A DNA stretch of 64,000 nt from Botryllus schlosseri (lineage: Eukaryota). The stretch covers positions 3,846,001-3,910,000 of the forward strand of contig CM119372.1 of assembly GCA_051294905.1 (NCBI GenBank), in the 5' to 3' direction. Of the stretch, positions 18,875 to 64,000 are shown in pieces (the stretch's first letter is position 1; each line of letters starts with the position of its first letter). The notes below the pieces were generated by a model. It worked only from the letters and a program-made list of their open reading frames with translations. It made no database searches and was not told the origin of the DNA. The position numbers were made by a program, and so were the translations under genes.

Positions 18875-20017
18875 TCATTTATCTATAGCACTGCTGCAGC
18901 AAGGCGTGCTGAAAACTCCATACCGCCCGTATACGTCTCTGCCACGGACAGCAAAATAGTACTTGAACTTGGACGAGAATTGGCTCAAAGTACACGCCAT
19001 TGGTAACGTCATAGCCTTTATAGGATCACTCTTGATCTTCCTCCATCGAATTGAATTAGTGGTCGCGTTGGAATCGTGCTGGTAAACATACAGCTCGTAA
19101 TAATCCATTTTTGCATACATTGATGTGTTGCTATGGTCCCACGACAACTCAATGCCATCATTGCTCTTCCGAATCTTCAACTCCGGTTTAAATGGGGCCG
19201 GTAGAATATTTGCAGGCAGATTTTTAGGTGGTAATGGTGGGTAAGGCAAGGGCGGGTACGGAGGGACTTGTTCCTCGCGTTTGACAGCCGAGCTTGATTG
19301 TGACGGCTTTCTTGAAGGTGTTTTCACTTCATTTTTCACTGGCCCAGCTGTTGCCTGTGATGCACCAGCTGAATTATTGCATTTACTTTTTGAAATACTT
19401 CGTGTTCTACTGAAAGTATCGCTAGTTTTGACACAATTTGTTGGTGTGCGTATATCAGCCTTTACATCATGCGGAAGGCTGGTCCGCTTCGAGCTGGGGG
19501 TAATCTGGTCGCTATCATCTTCCGTGAGGTCAATGATATCATCAGGCTGAGTGATCTTCTTCATTTTAGGCTGATTTGGAAGGTATTCCTTTTTCACAGG
19601 CTTCGGTTCACATACGCCAGGCTTGGGAGCTTTGATTCCGTTTTCTTGTTTAATTAAAAGTGGCGGCAAGCCGGGTACATCATCCGTCTGCGTCATGGCA
19701 TCGGCAGTTTGCACTTGTTTTTTCAACTTCAAGTTTTTAATCGATTCCTGCTGCCTGTTCAGTACCATGGCCATGCGCTTAACGCGTTGCTGCATTTCCA
19801 CGGCGAAATCGTGCCAATTTTGGCAGTTTTCATCCACTTTCTCGTGTTTAGCGATGAGTTTCTGGCACAGATTGTCTTTGAACGTACGCTGTTCGATTGA
19901 TTTCATTTGAAAACTTACTCCTTCTTCGATTAATTGTTTCAGGTAATCCAGGTCTGTACGTGGCCTCTTGTCGATGTTTTTCATGCTCATTGGGCTCAAC
20001 GAGCGTTTATTTGACAT
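18875..20017 (-). CDS. ATF7IP: ATF7IP/MCAF1/Windei-like SETDB1 cofactor, compact 380 aa, intronless CDS
   Basis: C-terminal FNIII domain with family motifs (IELSW, YELYVYQ, WRKI, IKAMTLPMACTLSQF, YYFAVRGRDVYGRYG.FS.PC); preceding Pro-rich PPLP segment; SIM-like DDIIDLTEDD; N-terminal coiled coil; in-frame stop upstream of the ATG. Confidence 0.88.
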   Translation of the reverse strand: MSNKRSLSPMSMKNIDKRPRTDLDYLKQLIEEGVSFQMKSIEQRTFKDNLCQKLIAKHEKVDENCQNWHDFAVEMQQRVKRMAMVLNRQQESIKNLKLKKQVQTADAMTQTDDVPGLPPLLIKQENGIKAPKPGVCEPKPVKKEYLPNQPKMKKITQPDDIIDLTEDDSDQITPSSKRTSLPHDVKADIRTPTNCVKTSDTFSRTRSISKSKCNNSAGASQATAGPVKNEVKTPSRKPSQSSSAVKREEQVPPYPPLPYPPLPPKNLPANILPAPFKPELKIRKSNDGIELSWDHSNTSMYAKMDYYELYVYQHDSNATTNSIRWRKIKSDPIKAMTLPMACTLSQFSSKFKYYFAVRGRDVYGRYGVFSTPCCSSAIDK

Positions 20018-21423
20018 GATGAAAATTATTTTATAACAGTGTACTTAGCCTAGTGTGTGAACTAATGTCTGGAAAATATGTCAAACTCTTATTTGAATCT
20101 GATGATGATCATGGTAATGTGAAGAGTTACACATACAGGGACAGTCACAAAGAGAGACAGAAAGTGAAAAAAAATTCATCATTTCATCACAAAAAAATAC
20201 AAAATAACAAAAACTTCAGACACATAATTATACTAGTCAATAGGGCTGATTATTTTTCAAATTTTACTGGCTGCAGGATAAAATTGTTAGGTTACCGGTA
20301 GCTAAAAATACGCTGCACACCAATTGTGGCTCAATTCCAACCTATAGAAGCATTGCTATATAAGAAAAAAGTTTTCAATTTATTTAATAAAAATATATAT
20401 AGAATTTTTTCTAATTTTACCGGCTACGGTACCCCATGAAATTGTTGGTTGTCTGAAAAAGCGATGAACAACAAATTTGACTAATTCCAGATTTGACTAG
20501 TTCTCGGTGCTGAAAATTTGTGATTTGAAATCATAGTAGGCTATTTACGGTGGGTATAGATCTATAATAAATATTGAATAGACTATATTTCCAAATCCAA
20601 AATGTGGGGTTGACAGTAAACTTTAAAAAAATCTAAACTTTTTTTTTTAAATAAATTCAAAATTTTCAAACTCCATTGCATGTAGAACTGCACAGTGCAC
20701 ATGCGCAACTACCAGTTCAGTTGGAAGTTCAAGTTTATTCATAAAATTTCATCATTTCAAAACATCACAAGACTGCGATACAATGAAAGATGAACGGTGC
20801 TGAATTGACTTGGAGTAGTCTTTCAGATCAGACACCCATCTGGGAAACTTGAAACGAACCGAATTTGGTGTGCAGCGCATCTTTAGACAACCTATAAAAA
20901 TATAATCAGTGAATCCCCGAAATCCGGGAAAAAGGTATTCGTGAACAAACCGCGCACATATACACGAATTACATAATAATATAGCCTGCTAATAGGCTAG
21001 AACCCAGTATCTCGCGAAGATCACGAACGCTACCAGACTTTCATATATGCAATTCATGAGACTTAACCTGTTGACTTCTTGTCTATACGCTACGCCAAGG
21101 CCCCGACGCCCCTGCCTCGCCTACCTATGCTGCGCAATTGCCCATTAGCAACATGCAGCGCTGCCCCAAAAGCAACCTACGACACCGGCAATCCTTGCAG
21201 AACAAAGGATTTGTATTGGAAATTTTATTTTAGTGGATTTGGATTTACTGATTTTCAGGTAGATTTACTTAAATAGTTTTAGACAGTCGCGAGCTTTTCT
21301 AATCCAGTATTGAGGTGATTAGTGGATTAGTATAGCGGCGTGGCTCAACTTCACAAAGATGTTATGAAGTGTACGTCATGCACGACTGGATCTGTAATCC
21401 GGTGCAGCTCCACTTGTGCGATG

Positions 21424-21456: not shown

Positions 21457-22123
21457 GTGCGATGCATATTGAGTTTTTCCACCTGGTCGAAATATCGCTC
21501 AGAGTGGGCCCTGAAGATCGTTCAAGGCTTTACAAGACGTTAGATTTAAACAGATCGATTACAGAACAAAGGTTAGTTGGATCAAAGCGTGTCATGGAGT
21601 GGAGAAACTTTTCCTGGAATACTGTGACCAAGAAGACTATATTATACTCCATTCGACATCTTCCGACCTTCCTTATACCTTTTCTTTCATTATTATAAAA
21701 TAATGGAATTACAAATTTTTCTGCTGCAATAACTTCGCTTCTAGTGGTTGGAATTGAGCCGAATTTGGTGTGCATCATCTCTACTGACAGAGTGACAGCC
21801 TAACAAAGTAACAATTTTATGGGGTAGACAGAAAAATTTGATATTTTATTTTCTATATAATAAATTCTATAACATAGTAAGAACCTCGCTTCTACTGGTT
21901 GGAAATCAGCCAAATTTGGTGTGCAGCGTTGTTTTAGCCAACCTCACACAATTTTATCACTGATGGCCAGTGAAATCTGAAGTATTTTTTTTTGAACAGC
22001 CCTAGCTGTGCATAGATACAGGTCAATGACTCCGCCCATTTGCTTAACCATAATGATCATATTTTCCAGACAATATTACGTCACACACTAGTTTACATAC
22101 ACTGTTATAAAAGGATTTTCATC

Positions 22124-22609
22124 ATGTCAAATAAACGCTCTCTGAGCCCGATCGACATGACAAACAAGAGACCACGCACTGACATCGATTACATTAAACA
22201 ATTAATCGAAAAAGGAGTAACTTATCAAATGAAGGCAATCGAACAGCATACATTCAAAGACGCTATGTGCCAGAAACTGATCGCCAAACACAAAGACATG
22301 GAAGAAAACTGCCGAAATTGGCACGAATTTGCCGTGGAAATGCAGCATCGCGTTAAACGTATGGGTATGGTGCTGAACAGGCAAGAGGAGTCTATTAAAA
22401 ACTTGAAAACAAAAGTGAAAACTGCCGATGCAATGATGCAGACGGATGACGTACCCGGCTTACCGTCGCTTGTTAGTAAACAAAACGGAATCAAAGCGAC
22501 CAAGCCTGACGTAAGTGAAGTAAACCCTGTGAAAAGGGAATACTTTCCAAATCCTCCGAAAATGAAGAAGACTGTCACTCGGTACGATGATATCATTGAT
22601 CTCACGTGA
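22124..22609 (+). CDS. Truncated inverted paralogue of the ATF7IP-like gene (161 aa; coiled coil and SIM, no FNIII); possibly a pseudogene
   Basis: MSNKRSLSP...DDIIDLT* aligns with the N-terminal part of the 18875-20017 protein; homology continues with stops and frameshifts to ~22742 and then ends. Confidence 0.7.
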   Translation: MSNKRSLSPIDMTNKRPRTDIDYIKQLIEKGVTYQMKAIEQHTFKDAMCQKLIAKHKDMEENCRNWHEFAVEMQHRVKRMGMVLNRQEESIKNLKTKVKTADAMMQTDDVPGLPSLVSKQNGIKATKPDVSEVNPVKREYFPNPPKMKKTVTRYDDIIDLT

Positions 22610-24144
22610 GATGAAGTAGCAAATGCAAAGTAGCCTTCGGCATGTTGTAAATACGGCACTGAAATACACACACCGCCACCCGCACATTGTTTCAAAACTG
22701 GTTAATATACCATCAGTAGAACATGCGTTATTTCAAAGAGTAGGCCTAAAGGTGTCAACTGCCATAATTCTGCCAGTGTGTAGTGTTCCTTTCAATTCTC
22801 TTCTAGTCACTAACGATTACCCCTGAGCCTGAGAGCCTGACTACTGTCAATCGGAAATATCCGAGTTTATTGCAATATGATTATATTGTTCAATTGTCTA
22901 CTGCAGTTCTGTACCTCCACGAGTTTCTTCGATTGAAAATAGTATACTTATACAACAATATAAGTTCGACAGAAGTGATTTTGCGGCAATTATGTTGTAG
23001 TGGTAATAAAATTACAAAATATCTCAGCTGGACTCATAGCACATAAAATCCAAATTCCGAACAGTAGTAATGAATGATGAAGATACGGTAGTATTGGAAA
23101 TAGTTGCGAAATTCTATATTGAAATTATTGCATTCACTAATGTGTTGAAGATACTCTTGGAGGTACAGAACTGAAATCACGTATGTTTGTTACATATTAT
23201 TATCGTTTTCAATGCAAAATGATCATAACATGATATAATGTAATGATAGGAAGTCACACAATGGACTAATCAACTATCCATGAGTAGATAATTTTAGAAC
23301 TGTCAACATCATCGTGACATTAGAAAACCTATCTTAGTCGATAGCTTCTGTTCCGAAAGTATAGTAGGCCTATACTGCTGAATATGACATCGATATCACC
23401 AAGGACGCACGGTCTTCGGGACAGCATAGTCTTGATGTTTTTGGTGTTAGGATGAGGACCGTGATGTCTGACTGTATGTCAATAACGATGTTTTAGCTTT
23501 TGGCGGAGTCCCTGACTATAAAGCATGTTGCACATAAATTGGTGCTTTGTCTGCCTCATAAAAAGAAGAACAGTTTCATTCATCGTATTTTAGTCCTGTT
23601 GACTTCTAATTATTTTGAATTACTTCATTTTCATGAAATACAATGAAAAATTATAATTTGCATGCTCAACCACTTAGATATACAATCTTCTTTTCAATTC
23701 GCCGTATAGCTGCTGCCGCTAATCTGTTGTGTGTCAGGGTATATTTCAATATGAATATATTATTCAATTGGATACTTTGATAATTCTATATCCCAATGCT
23801 CACACAGTCGTACTAATGAGGGGGCTGAGCAGCCTGGGGGCAGATACCATCATCATGCCTTTATACCATCCTCATGACTTTGTTTCTATATCTTGTTATT
23901 TATGTTGCCTGAAATCATATTGATTTCAAACAAACTGGTGATCCTTGTCCGCTGGGATGAGGCAATGACATTTATTCGTCTTCCAATTTCTTTCTACATT
24001 TCAGCTCGTACATATATATAAGATATGTTCCGGCGTAGACTTCTAAGTTGAGCGGCTGCGCCTCTAGATTATCTCTACGTGCAATATTCTGTTCCATACC
24101 TGGACCGGGTAAAGATCTGTTGTGCTGCGGTCGATTGGATTATA

Positions 24145-34609: not shown

Positions 34610-34948
34610 CTGGAAAGGAAAGGACGCAGTTTATTTTTGTCCTTGATGTTTTTGCGGCATATACACCGACTCATGATACACATACACGCGATCTGCGCAT
34701 ATGCATACCATGAGTACATGATGTGCATATGCCGCTGGACAAGGAAGTGCAGATATAGCCTTTACAGCTTTCTAAGTCATGCACCACCCCTCCACGCTAT
34801 CCCAGTAATGCATGAGCGCCAAGCAGGGAAGCCATGGATACCAGTGTTACTAATCAGGTCTTTGGTCTGACCCCGGCCGGGAATCGAACCCACGACCTAC
34901 CGATCAAGAAGCAGGACGCTTAACCATTACGCTATCTTGTCGGTGGAC
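34610..34948 (-). mobile_element. tRNA-derived SINE (~340 bp)
   Basis: Minus strand has Pol III A box (TAGCGTAATGG, 34924-34934) and B box (GGTTCGATTCC, 34880-34890), followed by a tRNA-unrelated body that recurs at ~13915-14176 and ~1476-1630. Confidence 0.8.
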
Positions 34949-42796: not shown

Positions 42797-44391
42797 TATA
42801 CCGGATTGGACATCTGTCATATTTGAATGATTCATACATTTCAGGATATTAGAGAGTCCATGTTATAAAAACTTGAAAAAGGAAGGATATTAGCAAATCT
42901 TTCTTTCATGTTAATTGCATAGTGGATAATTCGAGCTGTTCCACAATGAAACAATTTAGCATGCCACCGTTAATCATATGTTTGCATATGTTTAATGGTT
43001 CTATGATAGTCATTCAACCGACAATGTGGCATATAATTTACGAAGTAAATTGTTAATACTGTTGGAGTCGGAGTCGGGAGTCGGTACGTTTAAAGACTCT
43101 GGAGTCGGAGTCGGTACGTTTTAAGACTCGGGAGTCGGAGTCGGAGTCGGTATATTGAAAATGTGTGGAGTCGGAGTCGGAGCCGGAGTCGGTGGTAAAA
43201 TTTACCGACTCCACAGCCCTGGTATGAGCACGAGCTATACGTTGCACTTACCGGTGAAAAGTTCTTGGATGCCAACGCTTTACAATCGACTCTTCGTCAC
43301 TACTTCCATCACTATCACTTCTTTCATACGACTCTGTAGATATCTTTTTTTGCCTCTTACTGCACCCGTAGGCGACACAAAGACTGCCACCACCACCTGA
43401 ACGCACTGTCTTTGGCATGTTGAGCTACACAGATTTTTACACAGACACAGCTGAAAAAAATCTTGACTGTTAGAAAATTTATTCATTCAAAGCTCTATGT
43501 GCATAGATTACAACAAAGCCATAATTAATTAAATATATTAAAACATCAATCGATATTCCATAAGGGATTTCACGCCGGTCGCTTCTACGGTCACACAAGC
43601 ATGTCTCATGTCTGTTTTACCTCCAAATCTGGATTTAATCTTCCTTTACCACACTGTCTACATATAGCTACAGGCTAACTTTAGTCTTGGTTAATTTTCT
43701 TGGTCATTTACAACCCAACAACCCCTATCTTTAGCTATTCGCAACCTTTCTTGGTCATTTACGACGTAAACCCTCATCAGTAGAGCGATTTTTTCTACCT
43801 AAAAGACGGAGGATTTGACCGGAAAATCAATAATTTGACATTTTTTTACTAAAAAAAACCTCAATTTTGACCTTATGTATGCAAATTAGGTGTCTTTGCT
43901 CATGTTAAAATTGTACTACTTATGTTCATTTCTGGTTGGAACTGTCTGTCCTTACGAAGCAGTTTGGCCTGACTACACGTTTTTGACATAAAAACTGACA
44001 GATTTTTACAGGAAAAACTTAATTGCAACGAAATCTGGCCCTATGAAGAATTCCAGTAGGTATATCCAGTAGTATGGTAGAAATAATCAAAATTTGCTGC
44101 AGTAGGCCTACAACGAAAGGTATATTTTCATAAATTCTCGGGTTGAAAGTGTCAGTCCTGACTAAATAGCTTGCCAAGAATGGAGAAAGAACGTTCAACA
44201 GCAGCAGTTGTTGGCTGACAACAACACTGATGTTGTGCGTACTATCGAATGTTAACATTCAATGTTTGCTTCACTCTATCAATGTTATCTACATCACTAT
44301 TTTTTCATCACGCGGTTCTTGATATCGGAAGCGCGCAGTGCCCAAGCAGTCTTGCTTCATAGGGTAGTGCAGTACGTTGACCAGTGACCAC

Positions 44392-47300
44392 TAGGGTTGT
44401 CCAAAATTTGAAAAATTTCGAAAATGCTGCGTTGTAATGTCTTATTCTATAGATTATTGATTAAAAACATCAACAAGCCTGAAAGAAGCTCTCAGGAACG
44501 TCGTTAAGATTTCTTACAAAGCGTTTGAAAGTAGCTGCCAAAGAGTGGGCGGGCCACCGACGGCGAAATTGCAACTAGGCGGGCAATGACGAAACCACGA
44601 TTCTTGATTGGGTAATCGGTTATGCTTCAATGATGACGGCGGCTGTCAGCTCTGATTTGGGTGCTTCACCGTGTTTGACAGAAGGAGTAGGTTTTGCTGC
44701 TGCTGAGTCTGTTGGTGACGGCTGTAATACTGTAAAAGCGTGTTGTGGTTTGATGAGTCAATAGTAGTAATGTAACAGTGGTTCTTCGAATGTATCAGTT
44801 GTAGCAGTAGTTTCTGTTTTGCGGAGGTCGAGTCTGTTAGTAGAGACGGGAATTTGTAAAGCGCATTGTGGGTTGATGCATCAATAGTTGTAATGCAACA
44901 CTTGTTCCTTGCTCAATGTTTTAGTTGCAGCAGCATTTTCTGTTCTGATGAGGTCGATTTTGTTAGTAGTGGTTGTGGTTATGTACAAGGGCATTGTGGG
45001 TTGGTGAGTTAATAGTCGTAATGTAACACTTGTTACTTAAATGTATTAGGCGTAGCTGTAATTTATGATAGAAGGCAAAAATATTACTGTCATGGCAGAG
45101 GCAAAACGGCGGAAGACTGTGCACTTGCCACAGAGAAGAACAAGATCTCGATCTGAGCATTACTTGGTCGGATATGCTTGCGATTACATCTGTGGCTCGA
45201 GATTACCAACCTTGCGAGAAGTAATGAGTTACTTTCTGCATCTGAAAGACCATTGCCCTCAGTCAACCCCTACTCGTGAGCTATGTAATGTGGTGATTCA
45301 TGATGTCATGACAGTGTGGCAAATATCGAGAATTGCCACAATACTTAAAGGAAATGCGGTGAAATTACTTGAAAAACTGAACAAAAAATATATTTTTCTG
45401 AAGGCGACCATGAAACGGGAAAGTGATCCCAAGGGTAAGAGGAAAAAATTCACGGAAGATTTGGACAAGTTGTGGGATATTGGAAGTACAGATGCGATAG
45501 CAATAATACAAAATGACATTTGTCTATCACATGATAGAAAGCTCGAAGACATTGCATTCTATGAAGATCAACAGCAATCTCGCAAATGCATAATGTTGGG
45601 AAGAGACAAGATTCTCGCTAAAGACATCGAAAAGAAAACAGCAACCATGGCGGATAGAACTGTTAAAAACATTCAACATGACTCAAGTGATGACTATGTT
45701 GTTTTAGCATCTTCTTCATCTTCAAAAGAGGGTGATAGTTTGAGTTCAAGTTCTGATTATGATGCTGATGTTGGTCTTGGCACCTCGACAGCCATTAAGC
45801 TGATGGCACCTAAAAATATTATGAATAATACCCATGTGTCCCAAGCTCTGGATCGATTGCAAATAACAGACAACAAGGCAACAATGCTGATCGGAGCATT
45901 TATTACGGCTTGTGGCGGTGACATAGCAATGTTCTCTCTGTCAAGATCTTCGACAAAGAGAGCCAGGGAAACAAATCGTCTTGAAATTTCCAAGGATATT
46001 TCAGAAAAATTTGCAGAAAATAAACCTCAACATGTTGCTATTCATTGGGATGGAAAGCTCACAGAGGATAGATTAGGAAATCGGTATGAGGCTCTGTCAA
46101 TTGTCCTATCTTGTCATCCTCAATACTCAGAAGGAAAACTACTTGGCATTCAAAAGATGCAAAATGCTGCAGGTCAGACGCAAGCAGAAACCACTTTCAA
46201 CATAATTGAAAGTTGGAATATAAAAGATGCTGTAACAGCTTTGGTTTTTGACACTACAGCAAGCAACAGCGGCTGGAAGAAGGGTGCGGCAAAGATTCTT
46301 GAAGACCTTCTAGGAAGGAAGGTGTTCTACCATGCATGTCGGCACCATGTGTATGAGCTGGTAGTGAAAGACGTTTGGAAATCTTTATTTGGAAAGGCCA
46401 CAACTGGACCAGAGAATGCATGGTTTGCCCACCTTAAAAGGAACTGGAGCAGTCTTGACAGGGAACAGCAATTCAAGACTCTGACTATTCCTCTATGTTT
46501 TGCTGAACGAGCTGCAATGATAGTTGATAAGTTCAAGCTACTGTTGAACAGAAAAGATTTTTTCACACGGGATGACTACAAGCAATGTGTGACTAATGCT
46601 CTTGCTCTTCTCGGTGCAGATGAAGATATACGTCATCACAAACCTGGTGCAGCACACCATGCGAGATGGATGGGTACAATTCTGTATGCTCAAAAGATGT
46701 TCATGTGGGCCGACCAATTAGATTACAAATCTGAAGAAGTTGAACTGCTGCGCCGCTTCAATTTATTTTTGGTTCTCTTTTATATCCCTGCGTGGGTGGA
46801 TTCAAGCATTGGTCGTGATGCAGCTGGTAATGACTTGAGATTCGTTCAGCACATGTTGAGTTATAAGGAATATGATGAGCAAGTTTCCACAGCTGCTTCA
46901 CGAAAGCTTTTGAAGCACGACTGGTATATTGTTGAGGAAACCGCTGTATACGCCTTGTTTTCACCGACGGAAAGCAAGGAAACCCGGGAAAATATGGCAA
47001 AGGCGCTCCTGCAAGTAGAGCGAACTTCCAGTTTCAGAAGGGGCCCACCCTCATTGAATGCAACTATACAGATCAACAAGGACAGTACGTTGTCTGACCT
47101 TATTGGGCCCCAGTCGTGGTACATATTTGAAGTTTTTGAATGCTCTGGGGATTGGCTGCGTCAACCGGTTGATGATTGGCACTTTTCAGATTCATTCAAT
47201 AAAATGAATTGCTACGTTAGTTCTGTCAAAGTCGTTAATGATGCCGCAGAAAGAGGTGTCAAGCTAAGCACAGACTATGCTGCAATCTTGACTGACAATG

Positions 47301-48095
47301 AACAGCAAAGAGACAGTTTGCTTCAAGCTGTGGAACAGCATAGGAAGATTTTTGGAGACAGCAGGAAGTCTACTCTTATCAAAGGCCAGTGATCTGCAAC
47401 ACTGACCCTGCGATATACTTTTTAATGATGCCTTTTGTAAATAGCATTTTTGCCTTTGTTAAATCTTGAATAAAAAGTGTAATATGCGTTCGTTTTAGAG
47501 AGAGACGTCGACTTACCATAACAAGCCATAAGGAGAAATTGACTACTGGTTTGCAATTTATGAGTTACAGTCGTTGTCAACTGGTATGTTTTAGAAGGCT
47601 CGAAGGTAGCACGATGCATGCATCTAGCTCATTCTTATCTTAATTGGCCAAGCTCCTGTGCAAGAAGTAACAAAACTGTTATACACAGTGTTCAGGTAGA
47701 AAATATATTACTGGATCGTTATGCTGTTGTCGATGGCAGCATTAACAACGTCAATTTACCATATCGCCAATGCCACGAACAGAAATGGCTGCAAACCAAC
47801 ACAACAGAGTAGAACGAAATCGTGACCAGCAATGATCACAAAATCAGTATTTCAGCCAATCAGTAGCTTATTATTACAGGTTCCAACCAATCAAAATTCT
47901 AGGTTCGTGATTGCCCGCCCACTTCATCGATTCCCCGCCCACATGCAGACGGCTACTTTCAAACGCTTTGTAAGAAATCTTAACGACGTTCCTGAGAGCT
48001 TCTTTCAGGCTTGTTGATGTTTTTAATCAATAATCTATAGAATACGACATTACAACGCAGCATTTTCGAAATTTTTCAAATTTTGGACAACCCTA
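44392..48095 (+). mobile_element. Apparently intact autonomous hAT-superfamily transposon (hATm-like)
   Basis: Long near-perfect TIRs (~150 bp, tagggttgtccaaaatttg...caaattttggacaacccta); exact 8-bp TSD GTGACCAC (44384-44391, 48096-48103); single uninterrupted transposase ORF. Confidence 0.92.
45065..47392 (+). CDS. hAT-like (hATm-type) DDE transposase, 775 aa
   Basis: Motifs IHWDGK (D1), FDTTASNSG (D2), ACRHHVYEL (CxxH), PGAAHHARWM, VVNDAAERGVK (E); no stops or frameshifts. Confidence 0.9.
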   Translation: MIEGKNITVMAEAKRRKTVHLPQRRTRSRSEHYLVGYACDYICGSRLPTLREVMSYFLHLKDHCPQSTPTRELCNVVIHDVMTVWQISRIATILKGNAVKLLEKLNKKYIFLKATMKRESDPKGKRKKFTEDLDKLWDIGSTDAIAIIQNDICLSHDRKLEDIAFYEDQQQSRKCIMLGRDKILAKDIEKKTATMADRTVKNIQHDSSDDYVVLASSSSSKEGDSLSSSSDYDADVGLGTSTAIKLMAPKNIMNNTHVSQALDRLQITDNKATMLIGAFITACGGDIAMFSLSRSSTKRARETNRLEISKDISEKFAENKPQHVAIHWDGKLTEDRLGNRYEALSIVLSCHPQYSEGKLLGIQKMQNAAGQTQAETTFNIIESWNIKDAVTALVFDTTASNSGWKKGAAKILEDLLGRKVFYHACRHHVYELVVKDVWKSLFGKATTGPENAWFAHLKRNWSSLDREQQFKTLTIPLCFAERAAMIVDKFKLLLNRKDFFTRDDYKQCVTNALALLGADEDIRHHKPGAAHHARWMGTILYAQKMFMWADQLDYKSEEVELLRRFNLFLVLFYIPAWVDSSIGRDAAGNDLRFVQHMLSYKEYDEQVSTAASRKLLKHDWYIVEETAVYALFSPTESKETRENMAKALLQVERTSSFRRGPPSLNATIQINKDSTLSDLIGPQSWYIFEVFECSGDWLRQPVDDWHFSDSFNKMNCYVSSVKVVNDAAERGVKLSTDYAAILTDNEQQRDSLLQAVEQHRKIFGDSRKSTLIKGQ

Positions 48096-48103
48096 GTGAC
48101 CAC

Positions 48104-48136: not shown

Positions 48137-49099
48137 TTGGCCACAACTCTATCGAATGTAAACATGGAATGGCAACAACCGATTTTGCAGCTTCGTTCCG
48201 CTTCGCTGAGACCTTCCGAGAGAAAGCACTCACAAGGAATGGAAAGAACTAAAAAGGGTCGAGGCTTAAAAAAAATATCAACATCGAAAAGAACTGTGAC
48301 ATCAGGCACGCTAGGCCGAGGGGGATATCAGTCTAAAAAGATTGCAACTGCGTGTCGTTCGATTTCGATATCCTCCAATCTGTTCATTACATCGCATTGT
48401 ACATTCTGTGCAATGCTATATATCATTGATTCTGGGTGACTTGTTCAGATGAAAAATATAACTCAACGGATGGTTCGTAATTCCCTAAATGCAAGATTTT
48501 GTGGCCGGAGACGGATTGATTCCGACTGCAGAATTTGAGAATCTGCTTTCTGATGGCGACTTCGGCGAAGAAGCAGGGTTGCCCGATAGGATTGCCGCCG
48601 GACGTATACACCATGGCGTATTTTCTGGGTTGCGTGAGGGAATCTTTGCTGTGACGTATGCTTATTTGAAAGCCCTAACTTTTGAGGGAATTGATGAAAT
48701 GAGCTGGATATAGCTCAGTGGCTGGACCCGGCTGTACACATTGCACGGTTCATTGCAAGAATGTATCGCGCCGGATGTCGTATCCGACCCGTGCGCGCGC
48801 GGTATGCTTGAATAGGGCCTGTCCGAATGTGCAGACTGGCACTGCGGAGACACCACTGTGATGCTAATAGCACATCAGCAGAAATATGATGACCGCGTGA
48901 ATCATTGTGAATGTACATGGATAACATGATTTTTTTCGGTCTATAAAATTTGGGAATAACTGGAATATGTGTTGCCAGATTTCAAAATTCTCAGAAAAAC
49001 CGGTTGCTACCTCATAATATTTAGAGCTGGTCAACAAAAAGGATCCTGTTCCGTCAAATAGACATCCAAATGCCTACATTCTAACGATAAAACCGAAAA

Positions 49100-51600
49100 A
49101 TCATATTCACCCTTCTGCGACCCCAAGGGCAGATCCACTCCTTGCTACAAGTCGAAAAGACTATCCCAACATTACCCCAAAATATTTCAGCCTTCGGAAC
49201 ACAATAGGGGACCCAGCAGAATCTTTTGAAAATGAATATTTTTCTAAGAAATAGATATGAACATGATGATATTATAACGGATATTTAAAATATCAGTTTC
49301 ACCCCTCTGCGGCCCCAAGGGCAGAACTACTCCTTGCTACAAGTCGAAATAACTATGTCAATCTTACCCCAAAAGATATTTCAATCTTTGGAACACAATA
49401 GGGGACCCAGCAGAATCTTTTGAAAATGGATATTTTTTCAAGAAAAAAGGATGCCCGTAATAATATTATAACGGGTATTTAAAAAATTATTTTCACCCCT
49501 CTGCGACCTCAAGGGCAGATCCACTTCTTGCTACAAGTCGAAAAGACTATCCCAACATTACCCCAAAAATATTTCAGCCTTCGGAACACAATAGGGGATC
49601 CAGCAGAATCTTTTGAAAATGGATATTTTTCGAAGAAATAGGGATGCCCGTAATGATATTATAACGGATATTTAAAAATTCATATTCACCCCTCTGCGAC
49701 CTCAAGGGCAGATCCACTCCTTGCTACTAGTCAAAATGACTAACCCAACATTACCCCAAAAGATATTTCAGTCTTCGGAACATAATAGGGGACCCAGCAG
49801 AACCTTTTGAAAATGAATATTTTTCTAAGAAATAGATGAACATGATGATACTATAACGGATATTTAATAAATTATTTTCACCCCTCTGCGACCCCAAGGG
49901 CAGATCCACTTCTTGCTACAAGTCGAAAAGACTATACCAACATTACCCCAAAAATATTTCAGCCTTCGGAACACAATAGGGGACCCAGCAGAATCTTTTG
50001 AAAATGGATATTTTTCGAAGAAATTGGGATGCCCGTAATGATATTATAACGGATATTTAAAAATTCATATTCACCCCTCTGCGACCTCAAGGGCAGATCC
50101 ACTCCTTGCTACTAGTCAAAATGACTAACCCAACATTACCCCAAAAGATATTTCAGTCTTCGGAACATAATAGGGGACCCAGCAGAATCTTTTGAAAATG
50201 AATATTTTTCTAAGAAATAGATATGAACATGATGATATTATAACGGATATTTAAAATATCAGTTTCACCCCTCTGCGGCCCCAAGGGCAGAACTACTCCT
50301 TGCTACAAGTCGAAATAACTATGTCAATCTTACCCCAAAAGATATTTCAATCTTCGGAACACAATAGGGGACCCAGCAGAATCTTTTGAAAATGGATATT
50401 TTTTCAAGAAATAAGGATGCACGTAATAATATTATAACGGGTATTTAAAAAATTATTTTCACCCCTCTGCGACTTCAAGGGCAGATCCACTTCTTGCTAC
50501 AAGTCGAAAAGACTATCCCAACATTACCCCAAAAATATTTCAGCCTTCGGAACACAATAGGGGATCCAGCAGAATCTTTTGAAAATGGATATTTTTCGAA
50601 GAAATAGGGATGCCCGTAATGATATTATAACGGATATTTAAAAATTCATATTCACCCCTCTGCGACCTCAAGGACAGATCCACTCCTTGCTACTAGTCAA
50701 AATGACTAACCCAACATTACCCCAAAAGATATTTCAGTCTTCGGAACATAATAGGGGACCCAGCAGAATCTTTTGAAAATGAATATTTTTCGAAGAAATA
50801 GATATGAACATGATGATATTATAACGGATATTTAAAAAATCATTTTTACCCCTCTGCGACCTCAAGGGCAGAACTACTCCTTGCTACAAGTCGAAATGAC
50901 TATCCCAACATTACCCCCAAAATATTTCAGCCTTCGGAACACAATAGGGGACCCAGCAGAATCTTTTGAAAATGGATATTTTTCGAAGAAATGCCCGTAA
51001 TGATATTATAACGGATATTTAAAAAATCATTTTCACCCCTCTGCGACCCCAAGGGCAGATCCACTCCTTGCTACAAGTCGAAATGACTATCCCAACATTA
51101 CCCCAAAAATATTTCAGTCTTCGGAACACAATAGGGGGCCCAGCAGAATCTTTTGAAAATGGATATTTTTCGAAGAAATAGGGATGCCCGTAATGATATT
51201 ATAACGGATATTTAAAAAATCATTTTCTCTCCTCTGCAACCCCAAGGGCAGAACTACTCCTTGCTACAAGTCGAAAGGACTATTCCAACATTACCCCAAA
51301 AATATTTCAGCCTTCGGAACACAATAGGGGACCCAGCAGAATCTTTTGAAAATGAATATTTTCTCAAGAAATAGGGATGCACATAATGATATCATAACGG
51401 ATATCTAAAATATCATATTCATCCCTCTGCGGCCCCAAGGGCAGAACTACACCTTGCTACCACCATAGAATCCTATGAAAATTGATCATTTTTCAGGAAA
51501 TAAACATGCTCGTACTGATATTATAACGGCAATTCGAAAAATCATATCCAACCATCTGCGGCCTCAACGGCAGAACTACACCTTACTACAAGTCGAAATG
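49100..51600 (+). repeat. Left subterminal tandem array, ~12-13 units of ~193-194 bp
   Basis: gacccagcagaatcttttgaaaatg recurs at ~49210, 49404, 49597, 49791, 49982, 50176, 50370, 50562, 50757, 50950, 51137 and 51330. Confidence 0.95.
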
Positions 51601-52339
51601 GCGATCCCAATCATGAACTTTTCCGAAAAAAAACACGAATAATGTAGACCCACGGCATGTTCGTTGGTGTTCGACTAAAGTCAAACAATCACTTTAGATG
51701 GCACATTCACATGCAAACATAGAGGATATATAGAGTTCGTCGCAAACATAGAGGATACAAGTTTCATTCGAAATCAGTATTCGTTCATAGTATAAATACA
51801 GAAATATCAAATTGCGAGTCCATCATCGCTTTAGCTGCAATGTAGCTGAGGCTGCGTTTGTGCATTACATATTTAATGCAGATCTCTTTCAGTATAACGT
51901 ATCGGAAGAATTCATCAGCATGAAAATCGGGCTCCAACACTTTCATCAGTTCACAATTTTTTTTGATGACCGATGGATTGAACACATTCGTGATACGTGG
52001 CGCTGAGTACGCGTGCACAGTGACAGTCGAATTGACGCACTTTCTGAAGAGTTTCTTATGCAGGCATAACTTCGACATCAAATATCAATACGAATTTCCA
52101 GTGTCATCTTCTGGTAATAAGTCTGGCGGCGCTTTGCACTTAGTACGCTGAGCCAATTTGAATTGCATCATCAATTTCTTGTTGATAAGAAAAGTTCCGT
52201 GAGTTTGATGATTTGGTTCCTGGCACGCGTTTCGAGGCCTTTCACACAAAGCTGTGAAGTACGAGACTAAACTGTCAGCAAAGATTTCGTCAAATTCTCG
52301 TGGCATTTTAAACATTATCATTTGGAACTCCGTGACATT

Positions 52340-52771
52340 TTACATCCTGATTTCCAAATTTTCAATTGGTCTCATTCTTTTTTTCTTCACAATTTTTGGT
52401 TTGGGAGTCTCAGCTTCGTCGGCGGTAGAATCATCGTCGCTTATAATCAGACGCTTATCTGGGCGTCTTACATAAAAAAATATATATCCATTCTGAGTCT
52501 TCACAGTAGATGAAACGTCACGGCTTTCTCGATAAACGTTATTGTCATCATAGACAACTGTGGTACCATCCTTCTTCATTACGTTGGTGACGTAGTGTCC
52601 CGCGTTGACAGATTCGCCAAGCCTTGAAGCTATGGCGTTTAAATTAAAGAACTTGCCTCCATACTTAATCTGTTCCTCTGCTGCAAGGCTGTAGGAAAGA
52701 ATATTGCTACGATCGTTCCTTGGTGCATGAACCACCAGTAAACTCGGAGTCGACAAGATCTGACGATGCAT
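52340..52771 (-). pseudogene. C-terminal fragment of a USP (peptidase C19) deubiquitinase carried by the foldback element
   Basis: PSLLVVHAPR, FNLNAIASRLGESVNAGHYV (His box), VYDDNNV and GYIFFYVR; the Cys box is absent. Confidence 0.75.
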
Positions 52772-53744
52772 ATTGCATACCCACCACAGAGGTACATTTC
52801 AAACAAGGTTCTGTGGTCGAATCATCGAATTGCTTTCGGATATTGATATCAGAGCATTGTAGCAGTAGGCCTACAGCCTAATCGGGGTTTCGGGCATGCA
52901 TATTGCATACTCCTGATAACTATAGGCTATTGATCAATCCATTACCAAAGTCAAATTAAATCAGCGTTAGATTTACCATCCAATATTGGAACAGATCTAT
53001 ACAAACTTGAATATAATGATTACTGTGCCATAGCAATAGAAATGTCAAATTGGCGAAGAATCCATTGCTGTTACAGGCTTACAGCCGTGAAGGCTACGAC
53101 TACTCCATACTTGCCACATTTAAATGGCGACGATAACAAGGATAAAGATACCTAAGATGACACAGGGTGTAACTAACTATACAGTAAGAGGGCAACATAA
53201 TGCCAATGTTTGCCATACCGAGCTGCTTAGATATCTAAATACGCAACTCAAGCTAAGACCTTTTGATAACCATTCCCCATACCAGTTTGATAGTTTGGTG
53301 CGTCGGTGGTTGTACTAAGTCCAGGGTTTCTGAGTCACAATAATTCCTTCTCTGATTATAACGTTTGACCCGACTCAACTCAATTCATTTTTATTTTATC
53401 GCACATTGCGTCCGGGATCGAGTAATTCTACAAACATTCGCGCCGAAGTCCAAATCTCAATTTTCAGTCACGATTCATCAGCGGGTCATGTTTTACCATC
53501 ATAAACAAGTAGTGTAACGTAGTAATTGCTCTTCTACTGCGTGGTAACTTTTGAAAATGATGTAATAGTTAAGTTTGATGAGTAGTTTCAGGCTTCTGGA
53601 GTAGTTATAGAACAAATTTCCAGTTCTCAAATAAAAAAAATATATATTTTGCAGTTAAATATTGTCGAATACTTGAAAATTCGAAATGCCGTCGCGGGCC
53701 GCACAAAATGGTCTCGCGGGCCGCGTGTATGAGACCTCTGATTC

Positions 53745-54990
53745 AAGGGGTCAATTGTCAGAAACTGAGAGAATTTGTGGCTCGCATACATATATCACAT
53801 CTGCATCTGTTCTCAAACAGGTAGAGAGTAGTATTGGACTGCCTCAGAACTGGACACATGTTGTCTTCCAAAATCTTAATATCCCGGCCGAGGATTATAT
53901 AAACGACGGTTCTAACCTTTTTGCGTCACTGGGAAGGATTTTCCGAACCAGGGGCAACGCTATTCAGCGAAGCGCAGTTGGAACTATTGGAACTATTTTT
54001 GATCGATGGGGCTCTTACTCTGTGGAATTCAGTGGTATGGCTGTATTGCAGGGAAACCAGGTTACCATATACCGAGCGAGATAGTGTAATGGCGATGTGT
54101 CCGGCTTCTTGATCGGTATCCTCCTATCAAGACAAAACGTTCCAGAAGTGGTTATCGTGCTGTCGACGTCTACAAGAACACAAAAGTATTGACAGATCAC
54201 GCGACTTGACGTCTGAAGAATAATAATTTGACGATTTCGGCAATTATGGAGATTTTTTCTACAATGTTGCGTCGCTGGACAGAAAACAGGAGCTCAAGTC
54301 GCCTTTTATTTACGATATGAGAAAATGATCAACGAACTCAAGCACAGTGAATCATACAGAAACGGAAATTGTAAAGAAAAATTATCCGAGGAAAATGCAT
54401 ACATCTCCGACATTTTTATGGACAATTGATGTCGAAACTTGCAGAAACATCGCGCCTTTTACTTGGTGATTTATCGCGACATGTCTTTGAAAATTCTGTC
54501 TCTGCTTTTTATGCAAAATATTCCAATTTCTACAACAATCTCGAAAAGCAAAGTAATGATAAGGTAATACAGTGTATATGTAAAAACAATCGAACCCAAG
54601 GAATAATTGAGGAACATTTTTTCCAATTGAAAAATATTTACTTTGAACATACCACATCGAAATGCTCATTGGATAAATTTATTCTAACATATTGCAACGA
54701 AGTGTCAAGGTCTTGTGAGAGATGTTGCGATACAGTTTTCCATAAAAAGTATAAACGGTAAATCAGATAAAACGCAAAAAAAGTTTCAGGGATCGTCTTC
54801 ATCGAAAGCTAAAACTTCCCATCCAAATCACCAACTCATCAAATCAGTATTCAAGAAACGAAACAAGATAGGGAAAGTGTTGAAGCAGGTAGACAACAGC
54901 AGCTGCGGGGTTTGCATTTGCCTTGTCGCCGGGTGATATGCTCCGCAGGAACCGTCAAATACCCATTGGACCAAACACATTTCCACTATT
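53745..54990 (+). pseudogene. Frameshifted Mutator-like transposase remnant followed by a Ulp1/C48-like catalytic motif
   Basis: Across frames: FLIDGALTLWNSVVWLYCRET (D2-like region), KSPF, LLLGDLSRH, NNRTQGIIEEHFFQLK...LDKF (catalytic E region), then KQVDNSSCGVCIC (Q-x-D-x-x-S-C-G). Confidence 0.55.
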
Positions 54991-54992
54991 GG

Positions 54993-57130
54993 ATTCTTTT
55001 TTAAATATCCGTTATAACATCATTACGTGCATCCCTATTTCTTGAAAAAATATCCATTTCCAAAAGATTCTGCCAGGTCCCCTATTGTGTTCCGAAGGCT
55101 GAAATATTTTTGGGGTAATGTTGGGATAGTCATTTCAACTTGTAGTAAAGAGTAGTTTTGCCCTTGGGGCCGCAGAGGGGTGAAAATGATTTTTTAGATA
55201 TCCGGTATAATATCATAATGTTCATATCTATTTCTTCGAAAAATATCCATTTTCAAAAGATTCTGCTGGGTCCGCTATTGTGTTCCGAAGGCTGAAATAT
55301 TTTTGGGGTAATGTTGGGATAGTCATTTCGACTTGTAGCGAGGAGTGGATCTGCCCTTGAGGCCGCAGAGGGGTGAAAATGATTTTTTAAATATCCGGTA
55401 TAATATCATAATGTTCATATCTATTTCTTAAAAAAATATTCATTTTCAAAAGATTCTGCTGGGTTTCCTATTGTATTCCGAAGGCTGAAATATCTTTTGG
55501 GGTAATGTTGGGATAGTCATTTCGACTTGTAGCAAGGAGTGGATCTGCCCTTGAGGCCGCAGAGGGGTCAAAATAATTTTTTAAATATCCGGTATAATAT
55601 CATAATGTTCATATCTATTTCTTAAAAAAATATTCATTTTCAAAAGATTCTGCTGGGTTTCCTATTGTGTTCCGAAGGCTGAAATATCTTTTGGGGTAAT
55701 GTTGGAATAGTCATTTCGACTTGTAGCAAGGAGTGGATCTGCCCTTGAGGTCGCAGAGGGGTGAAAATGATTTTTTGATTATCCGGTATATTATCATCAT
55801 GTTCATATCTATTTCTTAGAAAAATATTCATTTTCAAAAAGTTCTGCTGGGTTTCCTATTGTGTTCCGAAGGCTGAAATATCTTTTGGGGTAATGTTGGG
55901 ATAGTCATTTCGACTTGTAGCAAGGAGTGGATCTGCCCTTGGGGTCGCAGAGGGGTGAAAATGATTTTTTAAATATCCGTTATAATATCATTACGGGCTT
56001 TCCTATTTCTTCGAAAAATATCCATTTTCAAAAGATTCTGCTGGGTCCGCTATTGTGTTCCGAAGGCTGAAATATCTTTTGGGGTAATGTTGGGATAGTC
56101 ATTTCGACTTGTAGCAAGGAGTGGATCTGCCCTTGAGGCCGCAGAGGGGTGAAAAGGATTTTTTAAATATCCGGTATAATATCATCATATTCATATCTAT
56201 TTCTTAGAAAAATATTCATTTTCAAAAGGTTCTGCTGGGTTTCCTATTGTGTTCCGAAGACTGAAATATCTTTTGGGGTAATGTTGGGATAGTCATTTCG
56301 ACTTGTAGCAAGGAGTGGATCTGCCCTTGGGGTCGCAGAGGGGTGAAAATGATTTTTTGATTATCCGGTATATTATCATCATGTTCATATCTATTTCTTA
56401 GAAAAATATTCATTTTCAAAAAGTTCTGCTGGGTTTCCTATTGTGTTCCGAAGGCTGAAATATCTTTTGGGGTAATGTTGGGATAGTCATTTCGACTTGT
56501 AGCAAGGAGTGGATCTGCCCTTGGGGTCGCAGAGGGGTGAAAATGATTTTTTAAATATCCGGTATAATATCATTACGGGCTTTCCTATTTCTTCGAAAAA
56601 TATCCATTTTCAAAAGATTCTGCTGGGTCCGCTATTGTGTTCCGAAGGCTGAAATATCTTTTGGGGTAATGTTGGGATAGTCATTTCGACTTGTAGCAAG
56701 GAGTGGATCTGCCCTTGAGGCCGCAGAGGGGTGAAAATGATTTCTTAAATATCCGGTATAATATCATCATATTCATATCTATTTCTTAGAAAAATATTCA
56801 TTTTCAAAAGGTTCTGCTGGGTTTCCTATTGTGTTCCGAAGACTGAAATATCTTTTGGGGTAATGTTGGGATAGTCATTTCGACTTGCAGCAAGGAGTGG
56901 ATCTGCCCTTGAGGTCGCAGAGGGGTGAAAATGATTTTTTAAATATCCGTTATAATATCATTACGGGCATTCCTATTTCTTCGAAAAATATCCATTTTCA
57001 AAACATTCTGCTGGGTCCGCTATTGTGTTCCGAAGGCTGAAATATTTTTGGGGTAATGTTGGGATAGTCATTTTGACTAGGAGCAAGGAGGGGATCTGCC
57101 CTTGGGGTCGCAGAGGGGTGAATATGATTT
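54993..57130 (-). repeat. Right subterminal tandem array, ~11 units of ~194 bp, inverted relative to the left array
   Basis: ttcaaaagattctgctggg recurs every ~194 bp from ~55060 to ~56997. Confidence 0.95.
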
Positions 57131-57540
57131 TTCGGTTTTATCGTTAAAATGTAGGCATTTGGATGTCTATTTGCCGGAACAGGATCCATTCTGTTGACCA
57201 GCTCTAAATATTATGAGCTGGCAACTGGTTTTTCTGAGAATTTTGAAATCTGGCAACCGATATTCCAGTTATTCCCAAATTTTATTGACAGAAAAAAATC
57301 ATGTTATCCATGTACATTCACAATGATTCACGCGGTCATCATATTTCTGCTGATGTGCTATTAGCATCACAGTGGTGCGGAGACTGCTGATCTGCATTGC
57401 CATCAGGGTTGCCACTCCTAGTGATTTTACCCTAGATCTATTGTTTTGACTTGACCTTGTGTTCTATAGTGTATTTTTTTCGAAATTCGGCAAATCCAGT
57501 CTTTTTTCTGAGAAATTATTTGTAAATCAGCAAATATTAG

Positions 57541-58192
57541 GGGTCAAGTGTAGAATCCGGCCAGTGATCCCCATGACCATCACCGATCAGTGTTGTACCT
57601 GAACCTGTCGAAATTAATAGTGTTTCACGTAATTACCGACTATGCTCCCCACAAAACCCTATAAATCAGGGGTTCTAAACCCGCGGGCCGCGGGCAGAGG
57701 ATTCGGGTCAAGTGTAGGAGGGATATTAGGGTTGCCGGAGGTGGAATATTAGGGTTGAGGGAGGTGGGATATTAGGGTTAGGGGAGGTGGGATATTAGGG
57801 TTGCCGGAGATGGGATACCCTAATGTCCCTCCTCCGGCAACCCTAACATCCCACCTCCCCTAACCCTAATATCCCACCTCCCCTAACCCTAATATCCCAT
57901 CTCCCCCAACCCTAATATCCCATCTCCCCCAACCCTAATATCCCACCTCCGGCAACCCTAATATCCCTCCTCCGGCAACCCTAACATCCCACCTCCCCTA
58001 ACCCTAATATCCCACCTCCGGCAACCCTAATATTTCTCCTCCGGCAACCCTAATATCCGACTCTCAACAGGCAAAATAAAAACAATATATTTTGACGTAT
58101 TCATGTGAAGCACTATGAGTTTTGACATGTTCATGTGAAACATTGATCGGTGATGGTCATGGGGATCACTGGCCGTATTCTACACTTGACCC
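57541..58192. mobile_element. Non-autonomous TIR element (GG termini, 8-bp TSD; Merlin- or MULE-like) with internal inverted G-rich minisatellite
   Basis: ~49-bp TIRs gggtcaagtgtagaat...attctacacttgaccc; exact TSD AATATTAG; ~20-23-bp units gggatattagggttgccggaggt that switch strand near 57816. Confidence 0.85.
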
Positions 58193-58295
58193 AATATTAG
58201 TTATAGTTATTTAGACAGACCAGTGTCTTATGATTTGTAAACACGAATCTCAAAAACTCTCTTCTCTCAATATAGGTTTCATTAACTTGAATGGT

Positions 58296-63109: not shown

Positions 63110-64000
63110 GTAGTAGGGTGTGTTCGGACATCTATTCTGGGGTGCGTGTGGACATCATGTCTGGGGTGTGTTCCGACATCATGTCTTGGGTCTATTAGGA
63201 CTGTGTTGCCATTCGAACATCGTGTCTGGGGTGAGTTCGGGCTGTTTTGTCCCTCGGACATCGTGTATGAGGGGGGTGTTCAGACACCATGCCTGGCGTG
63301 TGTTAGGACTGTGATGTCACTCTGACATAGTATCTGGGATATGTTTGTGTTGCGCCAGACATGACTCAGACCTGATATCTGCGCACTAATTTTATCCGGA
63401 CATGCTCTGGAGCTGATACCTGCCCACTAAATACCCCCAGGCATAGTCTGAACCGGATATATGCGCGCTTAATGGACGCAGATATGCGACAGACGTGATA
63501 CCCGCGTCCTAAACGACGCGTTTTTGCTGATATCTGCGATAGCTGGGTATATCCACAGTAGTGGTAGCTGAGTATATTCACAGTCACAGTAGAAATAGCT
63601 GAGTACATCCAAAGCTATCACTACTGTGGTTATACTCAGCTATCACTGCTGTAGATATACCCAGCTATCGCAGATATCAGCAAAAAACGCAAATATAAAG
63701 GTCATATATAGGCCAAATGTCGTTTAGGACGTGGGTATCACGTCTGACGCATGTATGTGTCCATTAAGCCCGCAGATATCAGGTCCGGACTATGCCTGGG
63801 GGGTATTTGGTGCGCAGGTATCAGCTACGACACATGTCCAGATTAAACTAGTGGGCAGATATCAGGTCTGAGGCATGTTTGGCGTATCACAAACATATCC
63901 CAGACACGATGTCCGAGTAGAAAACACAGTCCGGACACCTTCCAGACACGATGTCCGAATAACAACACAGTCCGAGCTCACCCCAGATATTATGGCTCGG
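63110..64000. repeat. Long imperfect palindrome with flanking short tandem repeats, running off the window end
   Basis: ~63336-63555 is the reverse complement of ~63655-63900; tgtctggggtgtgttcggaca-like units on the left are mirrored by ccagacacgatgtccga units on the right. Confidence 0.8.

Follow-up and report, generated by a model that had tools for sequence, protein, structure and literature searches.

The transposases of Mutator-like elements (MULEs) carry a DDE triad with a C/D-x-x-H signature between the second Asp and the Glu, and their insertion is marked by target-site duplications (TSDs) of 8-11 bp, usually 9. FB-NOF belongs, like Tm1 and Phantom, to the foldback Mutators. For Tm1 and Phantom, composite terminal inverted repeats (TIRs) with internal repeats, a MULE transposase and TSDs of 8-10 bp, the latter given for Tm1, are described in the cited part of one study (PMC3169594). 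Rehavkus elements, in the passages cited here, have foldback ends with tandem repeats (bioRxiv 2024.12.02.626372) and a single open reading frame (ORF) with a PHD finger and a 9-bp TSD (PMC6446971, Table 1); their transposase is of the MULE-type DDE kind. Why transposases carry Ulp1, OTU or ubiquitin-specific protease (USP) domains is stated as an open question in the cited section of PMC2836005. The present analysis concerns an 8.5-kb foldback element at 48852..57375 of a 64,000-nucleotide stretch of the Botryllus schlosseri genome (assembly GCA_051294905.1, contig CM119372.1, positions 3,846,001 to 3,910,000), called the window below. It is very probably a dead, non-autonomous, Rehavkus-like foldback Mutator copy; its intact relatives encode one polyprotein on one strand, and the opposite-strand layout of its own gene pieces likely results from inversion and deletion within this copy.

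The limits of the element are set by the 23-mer CACCACTGTGATGCTAATAGCAC, which the window contains just two times, at 48851 (+) and 57377 (-), and none of 100 shuffles contained; the same search of the window gave no further terminus inside the element. Its outer parts are arranged as follows.

48843..48851, plus strand: 9-bp direct repeat flanking the element, left copy (TSD of 8 or 9 bp)
48851..49095, plus strand: left terminal inverted repeat, its unique part of 245 bp, matching the right one at 234/245 positions
49096..51623, plus strand: left array of ~194-bp units with its degenerate inner tail
54997..57132, minus strand: right array of 194-bp units, 11.0 copies
57133..57377, minus strand: right unique terminal inverted repeat
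57376..57384, plus strand: 9-bp direct repeat flanking the element, right copy

The left array proper (49096-51460) has a period of 193 and 12.3 copies and fades into a degenerate tail reaching ~51623, while the right array has a period of 194 and starts abruptly, without such a tail. Both arrays are inverted relative to each other at 87-93% identity, and with them the inverted ends total 2.4-2.8 kb. Long inverted ends with subterminal tandem repeats, by which Rehavkus is recognized, are thus present in the window element. Within the arrays, pairs of units three or five positions apart are 97-100% identical; blocks of 3 and of 5 units were duplicated inside the left array, and the block patterns differ between left and right. 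Since the duplications are private to each array, the array lengths changed separately. These results bear out an earlier first-pass annotation, made from the letters of the window alone, in its description of an 8.5-kb element with TIRs of more than 2 kb built from tandem 194-bp units. The 9-bp flanking repeat TGCGGAGAC that it also reported is indeed exact, and it overlaps the perfect inverted repeat, so that the boundary is ambiguous by one base. Symmetric ends give a TSD of 8 bp (element at 48852-57376) or 6 bp (48851-57377), and a TSD of 9 bp requires ends that are asymmetric by one base; with a single copy, 8 and 9 bp are both possible, and either fits a Mutator-type element.

Between the arrays, the coding remnants are read in two opposite directions around a block of repeats.

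51785..52339, minus strand: C-terminal domain of the family polyprotein (about residues 1990-2186 of the relative P0007), broken by two stops
52340..52798, minus strand: USP (C19) domain, C-terminal half, including the His box (AGHY, DD, GYIFFY) and followed by an acidic and basic linker; Cys box absent
up to 52877, minus strand, other frame: possible further residues of the USP finger region
52863..53740, no strand: unrelated high-copy repeat fragments, ~880 bp, between the oppositely oriented gene parts, recognized by contig depth
53746..54743, plus strand: MULE-type transposase pieces (P0007 802-852, 966-994, 1097-1169 and 1174-1282), colinear and frameshifted
54071..54118, plus strand: tRNA-like, likely short interspersed element (SINE), head piece of 48 bp at a transposase deletion junction, 83% identical to window 34898-34944, with the B-box in loose contig ends
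54874..54930, plus strand: Gln-Cys motif QVDNSSCG of an Ulp1-type, CE-clan protease (P0007 1591-1609); the triad has lost its His and Asp

The minus-strand USP His-box fragment, already seen in the first-pass annotation, was found by Pfam UCH in one of the six frames (E=1.4e-6, profile 196-254/254), and it reads in frame into the family C-terminal domain (P0019 over 51833-52648, E=3e-11; P0016, E=6e-19). The decayed plus-strand transposase ending in an Ulp1-type motif was likewise recovered: a profile of eight relatives identifies eight pieces inside the element at 8.7-70.7 bits, its best score among 943 pieces elsewhere in the window being 2.3 bits, and the motif Q.[DN]...CG has a single occurrence across the window's six frames, at 54886. 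The MULE and C48 assignments of the window pieces are made solely through the relatives; of the Pfam families proposed as a check on the internal ORFs, UCH had a match in the window and MULE and Peptidase_C48 had none in any of the six frames.

The plus-strand pieces follow the order of P0007 (802-852, 966-994, 1097-1282, 1591-1609), with gaps of 94, 135 and 130 nt against 339, 306 and 924 expected from that protein; the minus-strand pieces correspond to residues 1882-1995 and 2085-2186, and all pieces cover non-overlapping parts of the P0007 map. In total 497/2193 residues (about 23%) are retained, together with 4/10 catalytic residues: of its triad Ulp1 has just the Cys (beside the Gln of the motif), the USP has just the His, and the transposase has the second Asp and the Glu. 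The first Asp, the CxxH and the PHD finger of the transposase are missing, and the longest stop-to-stop frame lying wholly within 51624-54996 has 152 aa. Because an intact transposase ORF is absent and 6/10 catalytic residues are deleted, the copy is not autonomous. The family is an animal-type MULE and the window copy encodes no working enzyme, although it could be movable in trans.

The architecture of the intact gene was derived from relatives. With a 128-aa plus-strand frame as query, one relative among 78 candidates was obtained, P0001, whose cluster counts 14 members, 96-99% identical and carried on contigs of 190 kb-1.1 Mb, and includes P0007 and P0009 (2193 aa). A further search (4 matches of 1955 candidates) gave the full-length relatives P0028 (2074 aa) and P0029 (1905 aa). 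In P0007, P0028 and P0029 (1905-2193 aa) a single ORF on one strand specifies, in this order, a PHD finger, a MULE-type DDE transposase, an Ulp1-like protease, a USP, an acidic-basic linker and a C-terminal domain. Both proteases are thus fused in frame behind the transposase on the same strand in 3/3 full-length close relatives, and in all six long relatives having both proteases these share a single ORF with the transposase. The single ORF with a PHD finger that characterizes Rehavkus is accordingly found in the relatives, the PHD finger being deleted in the window. When the minus-strand frame was compared with 1.84 billion proteins, 13 matches were returned, four of which (P0016, P0019, P0021, P0025) share the family architecture, the other nine being USP-domain proteins; among them P0015 is a Helitron-like PIF1 helicase fused to USP domains (UCH). 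In that search the C-terminal domain was found in family members only (P0016, P0019, P0025). A second clade, P0030-P0032 (3 of 4 matches, 1691 candidates), has the transposase followed by the USP and then by a Pfam Peptidase_C48 domain at the C-terminus, which is the reverse of the protease order in the window's family; a second, degenerate USP-like stretch is likely present in these proteins. P0033, to judge by the name of its source a sea-cucumber protein, contains the transposase and is without Pfam match. Finally, the family alignment retrieved two relatives among 178 candidates in metagenomes, none among 64 candidate stretches in viral contigs and none among 23 candidates in prokaryote genomes; the terminus patterns had no match in metagenome or viral contigs, and the element had no phage match.

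Identification of the domains relies on motifs, profiles and predicted folds. The D..D..CxxH..E signature, the His and Cys of the CE protease and the Cys and His boxes of the USP occur in 3/3 full-length proteins, and the DDE and C/D-x-x-H signature is present in P0007, P0028, P0029, the L001 ORF, P0030 and P0031 (L001 being a 1426-aa open frame ended by the contig end). In Atlas, the transposase core scored 0.95, 0.93 and 0.90, and the best 10 family-bearing matches all belong to the MULE family or clan (10/10). The PHD finger was detected above the cut-off in P0029 (E=1e-5) and below it in P0028 and L001 (~1e-4). For the middle domain, PF02902 appears in 29/30 Atlas matches (best 0.94), and over its full length the domain can be aligned (14.4 bits) with the C48 domain that Pfam recognizes in P0030. 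The model of P0019 (residues 79-241/288) resembles SENP7 (Z 7.1, root-mean-square deviation 3.4, 117 aligned), Ulp1 (Z 6.8, 2.6, 93) and a NEDD8 protease (Z 6.4); fold matches, bacterial deubiquitinase (DUB)-type CE enzymes included, span Z 6.2-7.2, with SUMO, NEDD8 and ubiquitin enzymes tied. On these grounds the middle domain is a CE-clan protease, with SUMO, NEDD8 and ubiquitin all as candidate substrates. Its His-Asp-Cys triad and Gln are kept in 5/5 close relatives. The USP of the relatives is matched by Pfam UCH at 1e-19 to 5e-25 (1.3e-21 in one scan) and by fold at Z 13-15, and Foldseek on the P0019 model returned USP-fold chains only. The C-terminal domain (P0016 model, predicted local distance difference test (pLDDT) 60.6) had no match with Z >=5 among 48,161 chains (best 3.4) and none in Foldseek at E 0.001, an absence that does not show a new fold. 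The motifs of both proteases persist in 5/5 proteins spanning them, at 25-51% identity to P0007; intact triad and USP boxes at such divergence argue for selection on both putative activities. The proposed control of the Cys and His boxes thus gave intact boxes in 5/5 close relatives, the window itself keeping the USP His box and the Ulp1 Cys motif only. Taken with the ends and arrays, the MULE-type relatives uphold the earlier view of a foldback Mutator-like element, and their architecture also supports a parent carrying USP and an Ulp1-like protease. Zisupton, Galileo/P and Polinton were rejected on account of the MULE-like transposase of the relatives.

Sister copies and RNA evidence come from 4 of 24 runs, including the DNA runs X1 and X5 and the RNA runs X22 and X24. 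In X1 and X5 all 30 bins are covered and sister copies of the gene pieces have ~92-95% identity; the USP piece is ~95% identical to sister copies in X1, X5 and X22. The stop at 52340-52342 is absent from 488.5/512.5 depth in X1, from 327.2/327.2 in X5 and from 8/8 reads in X22. Summed contig depth is 3,000-350,000 for the junction repeats versus 200-1,400 over the gene pieces. In one X5 contig (272 nt, depth 200), 53740-53836 (+) is continuous with 52123-51952 (-), so that the transposase and the C-terminal domain there share one orientation. In 6% of the run, reads of X22 reach a depth of ~4-15 per bin over 51733-52749, in both directions and with fixed differences from the window; consequently it is the 3' end of a sister copy that the RNA contains. 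No X22 reads were found over the transposase or Ulp1 pieces, and X24 has almost none. As a separate observation, many RNA reads of X22 and X24 begin at the tRNA-like SINE head (54071-54118, 34898-34944), directly behind the cDNA adapter, so transcription of this SINE family appears to start at its 5' end.

The opposite-strand layout, with its colinear plus-strand pieces, short gaps and foreign repeats at the junctions, is best read as inversion of the transposase-to-Ulp1 segment with deletions. The gene would originally have been read leftwards, with its C-terminus adjoining the left array; the transposase-to-Ulp1 segment would then have flipped, and the N-terminal 800 residues, the first USP half and at least three internal stretches would have been lost. 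Such an outcome, repeat DNA at the junctions included, is what would be expected from abortive gap repair, or from recombination promoted by the long inverted ends. The layout is therefore likely damage to this copy and not family design. The first-pass annotation had concluded from it that the autonomous parent coded for the two proteases on opposite strands, which amounts to a pair of diverging genes, one for transposase and Ulp1 and one for the USP. This orientation is what the window displays, the wider group does contain another domain order (USP before C48 in P0030-P0032), and the parent of this subfamily is not among the relatives; such a parent is nevertheless very improbable, since 6/6 long relatives with both proteases keep them in the transposase ORF, the X5 joint is same-sense, and the USP piece without Cys box and the transposase without N-terminus both abut the same foreign-repeat block, where the USP starts and the transposase N-terminus is lost. 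Neither a parent with the proteases on opposite strands nor the idea of them as separate cargo is thus supported.

A chimera of two oppositely oriented sister copies, joining the 3' end of one to the middle of the other with one end from each and subsequent trimming by deletion, would account for the differing block patterns of the arrays, for the foreign repeats between the halves and for the right array starting abruptly 66 nt past the Ulp1 motif. It would need extra deletions, given that a single flanking direct repeat encloses everything and no inner terminus exists, and on the P0007 map the pieces are free of overlap, as single-gene origin predicts; it is regarded as an outside chance, somewhat greater than that of divergent genes. 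The least credible origin is a one-off capture of a host exon by a Pack-MULE-like event, which the first-pass annotation had named as the finding that would overturn its proposal. In its favour, the highest pairwise scores of the His-box region go to non-family USPs, and the tree gives no clear placement. Capture is largely refuted by the in-frame continuation into the linker and the family-only C-terminal domain and by the ~95% identical sister copies across the USP piece in three runs. From these comparisons the USP piece is not a one-off host capture: USP and C-terminal domain belong to the transposase ORF of the relatives, a pattern other than that of Pack-MULEs.

A number of results weigh against inversion within a Rehavkus-like MULE copy. 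Pfam MULE and Peptidase_C48 have no match in the six frames of the element; neither has one in P0001, P0007, P0011, P0028, P0029, P0019 and P0021, and Pfam MULE has none in any relative scanned. The P0019 model is weak (mean pLDDT 50.8), with CE-clan Z scores <8. In the tree of the His-box region (19 rows, 134 columns), where 2/16 inner branches are well supported, the window USP piece is not grouped with element-borne USPs and falls, in an unsupported placement, with P0018 and P0015; its best pairwise scores are to five USPs outside the element-borne set. The relatives found are 25-40% identical to the window pieces and include no intact copy of the window's own subfamily. An upstream tandem array or inverted end is absent from L001 (3.8 kb) and L002 (9 kb), so foldback ends are demonstrated for the window copy alone. 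The same-sense joint is one contig, no reciprocal joint was seen among 15 of the 106 X5 joints, and the joint could instead come from a window-like copy that inverted later. The relatives returned include no protein named as Rehavkus or NOF, and the likeness to Rehavkus is one of described features. Apart from this question, L002 has three mutually similar-looking small ORFs (104-191 aa stop to stop) at 6054-7353, upstream of the gene, with no counterpart at that position in L001.

The transposase of active relatives would attach to the repeat units and pair the ends, and once bound it would tether the PHD finger, the SUMO or ubiquitin-like protease and the deubiquitinase to the element's own chromatin. 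The deSUMOylase and deubiquitinase functions of these domains are putative. The pair may clear the transposase complex and nearby silencing factors of SUMO and ubiquitin, allowing escape from SUMO-dependent repression and SUMO-targeted degradation, a role that is favoured here although it stands well below even odds. The broader version is more tentative still: an animal Mutator branch uniting PHD reader, deSUMOylase and deubiquitinase in one chain, in two domain orders (Ulp1-USP-new C-terminal domain; USP-degenerate USP-Ulp1), would act as an array-tethered, cis-acting shield against SUMO-dependent silencing and SUMO-targeted ubiquitination. The proteases might instead serve transposition itself, by steering DNA repair at the breaks or by stabilizing the transposase, or the CE domain might have NEDD8, ubiquitin or the polyprotein itself as its substrate. 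This stands at a little under even odds and is about as likely as, or more likely than, the silencing shield. A DNA-repair role has been proposed for Ulp1 and OTU in transposases (cited section of PMC2836005), and Helitron DUBs, with ubiquitin and NEDD8 but not SUMO activity in the cited part of PMC9741609, were proposed to protect from proteasomal degradation; in addition, the matches of the CE domain to a NEDD8 protease and to bacterial CE enzymes of DUB type come within 1 Z of its match to SENP7. On the other side, a PHD finger in the same chain suggests chromatin, and SUMO dependence of transposon silencing has been published. The window locus, being a decayed copy, itself adds little, and intact relatives are the better study objects: a family that keeps SUMO-type and ubiquitin-type protease active sites across 25-50% identity, with recent near-identical copies within a single collection (P0007 cluster), offers single-exon enzymes open to direct assay.

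Other features of the window deserve brief mention. At 18875-20044 (-) lies an intronless-looking 389-aa ORF ending in Pfam fn3_4 (E=3.7e-29), a domain presumably ATF7IP/Windei-like, and at 22016-22742 (+) an inverted, truncated paralogue of it (77% DNA identity). The ATF7IP-like gene is ~29 kb from the element, which is proximity only and makes no link to the SETDB1-ATF7IP pathway, the example of repression named in the first-pass annotation. A separate 3.7-kb element at 44389-48098, with 223-bp inverted ends (86.5%), is situated 750 bp left of the foldback element and has an open 776-aa transposase-like ORF (45062-47392) with no significant Pfam match. Directly to the right, at 57533-58198, is a small foldback element whose two inverted halves consist of 23-bp units; the 28 matches of an Rfam scan were all sub-threshold and all at 57705-57978 in this neighbour, outside the element. 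An imperfect palindrome of ~680 bp with short tandem units occupies 63279-63959.

Among known systems, Rehavkus (Repbase; sister to or part of MULE) shares the foldback ends and the single PHD-bearing ORF, and differs in that no USP or Ulp1 is listed for it and its TIRs measure 26-400 bp versus 2.4-2.8 kb here, as far as the cited parts go. The attribution of Ulp1 to Rehavkus in the first-pass annotation was not sustained, Ulp1 and C48 having no occurrence in the cited part of PMC6446971; that of Ulp1 to Mutators in general holds for hydra, lancelet and plants. Indeed, the Mutators of hydra, lancelet, Arabidopsis (KI-MULE/Kaonashi), maize, rice and melon, and Ginger1 (Ulp1 or OTU, sometimes PHD), likewise join a SUMO-type protease to a transposase; they differ in having one protease each, with no USP described in the cited section (PMC2836005). 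Tm1 and Phantom, alike in their ends, have FLYWCH-MULE transposases without proteases in the cited part of PMC3169594. The transposase_11-Peptidase C19 fusion of Trichomonas (XP_001314237.1) also places a USP-family domain on a DNA transposase, but of another family, with no Ulp1 or PHD mentioned in the cited section (PMC2836005). The literature search found no MULE with a USP, UCH or Peptidase C19 domain plus an Ulp1 or SUMO protease, Repbase Reports and supplements lying outside its scope (Table S1 of PMC6446971 may list further Rehavkus domains), and the cited parts of PMC6431247 and PMC13359780 contain nothing on a MULE with both proteases. Helitrons and Helentrons (VTD plus OTU, or UCH, or Peptidase_C48) resemble the family in having two isopeptidase classes in one ORF, with VTD activity shown (PMC9741609), and UCH and C48 as stable add-ons (PMC11417382); in the cited passages they differ by rolling-circle transposition without TIRs and by VTD and OTU being both ubiquitin-type. 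Each add-on is thus known singly in transposons, and their combination in a MULE did not appear in the literature searched.

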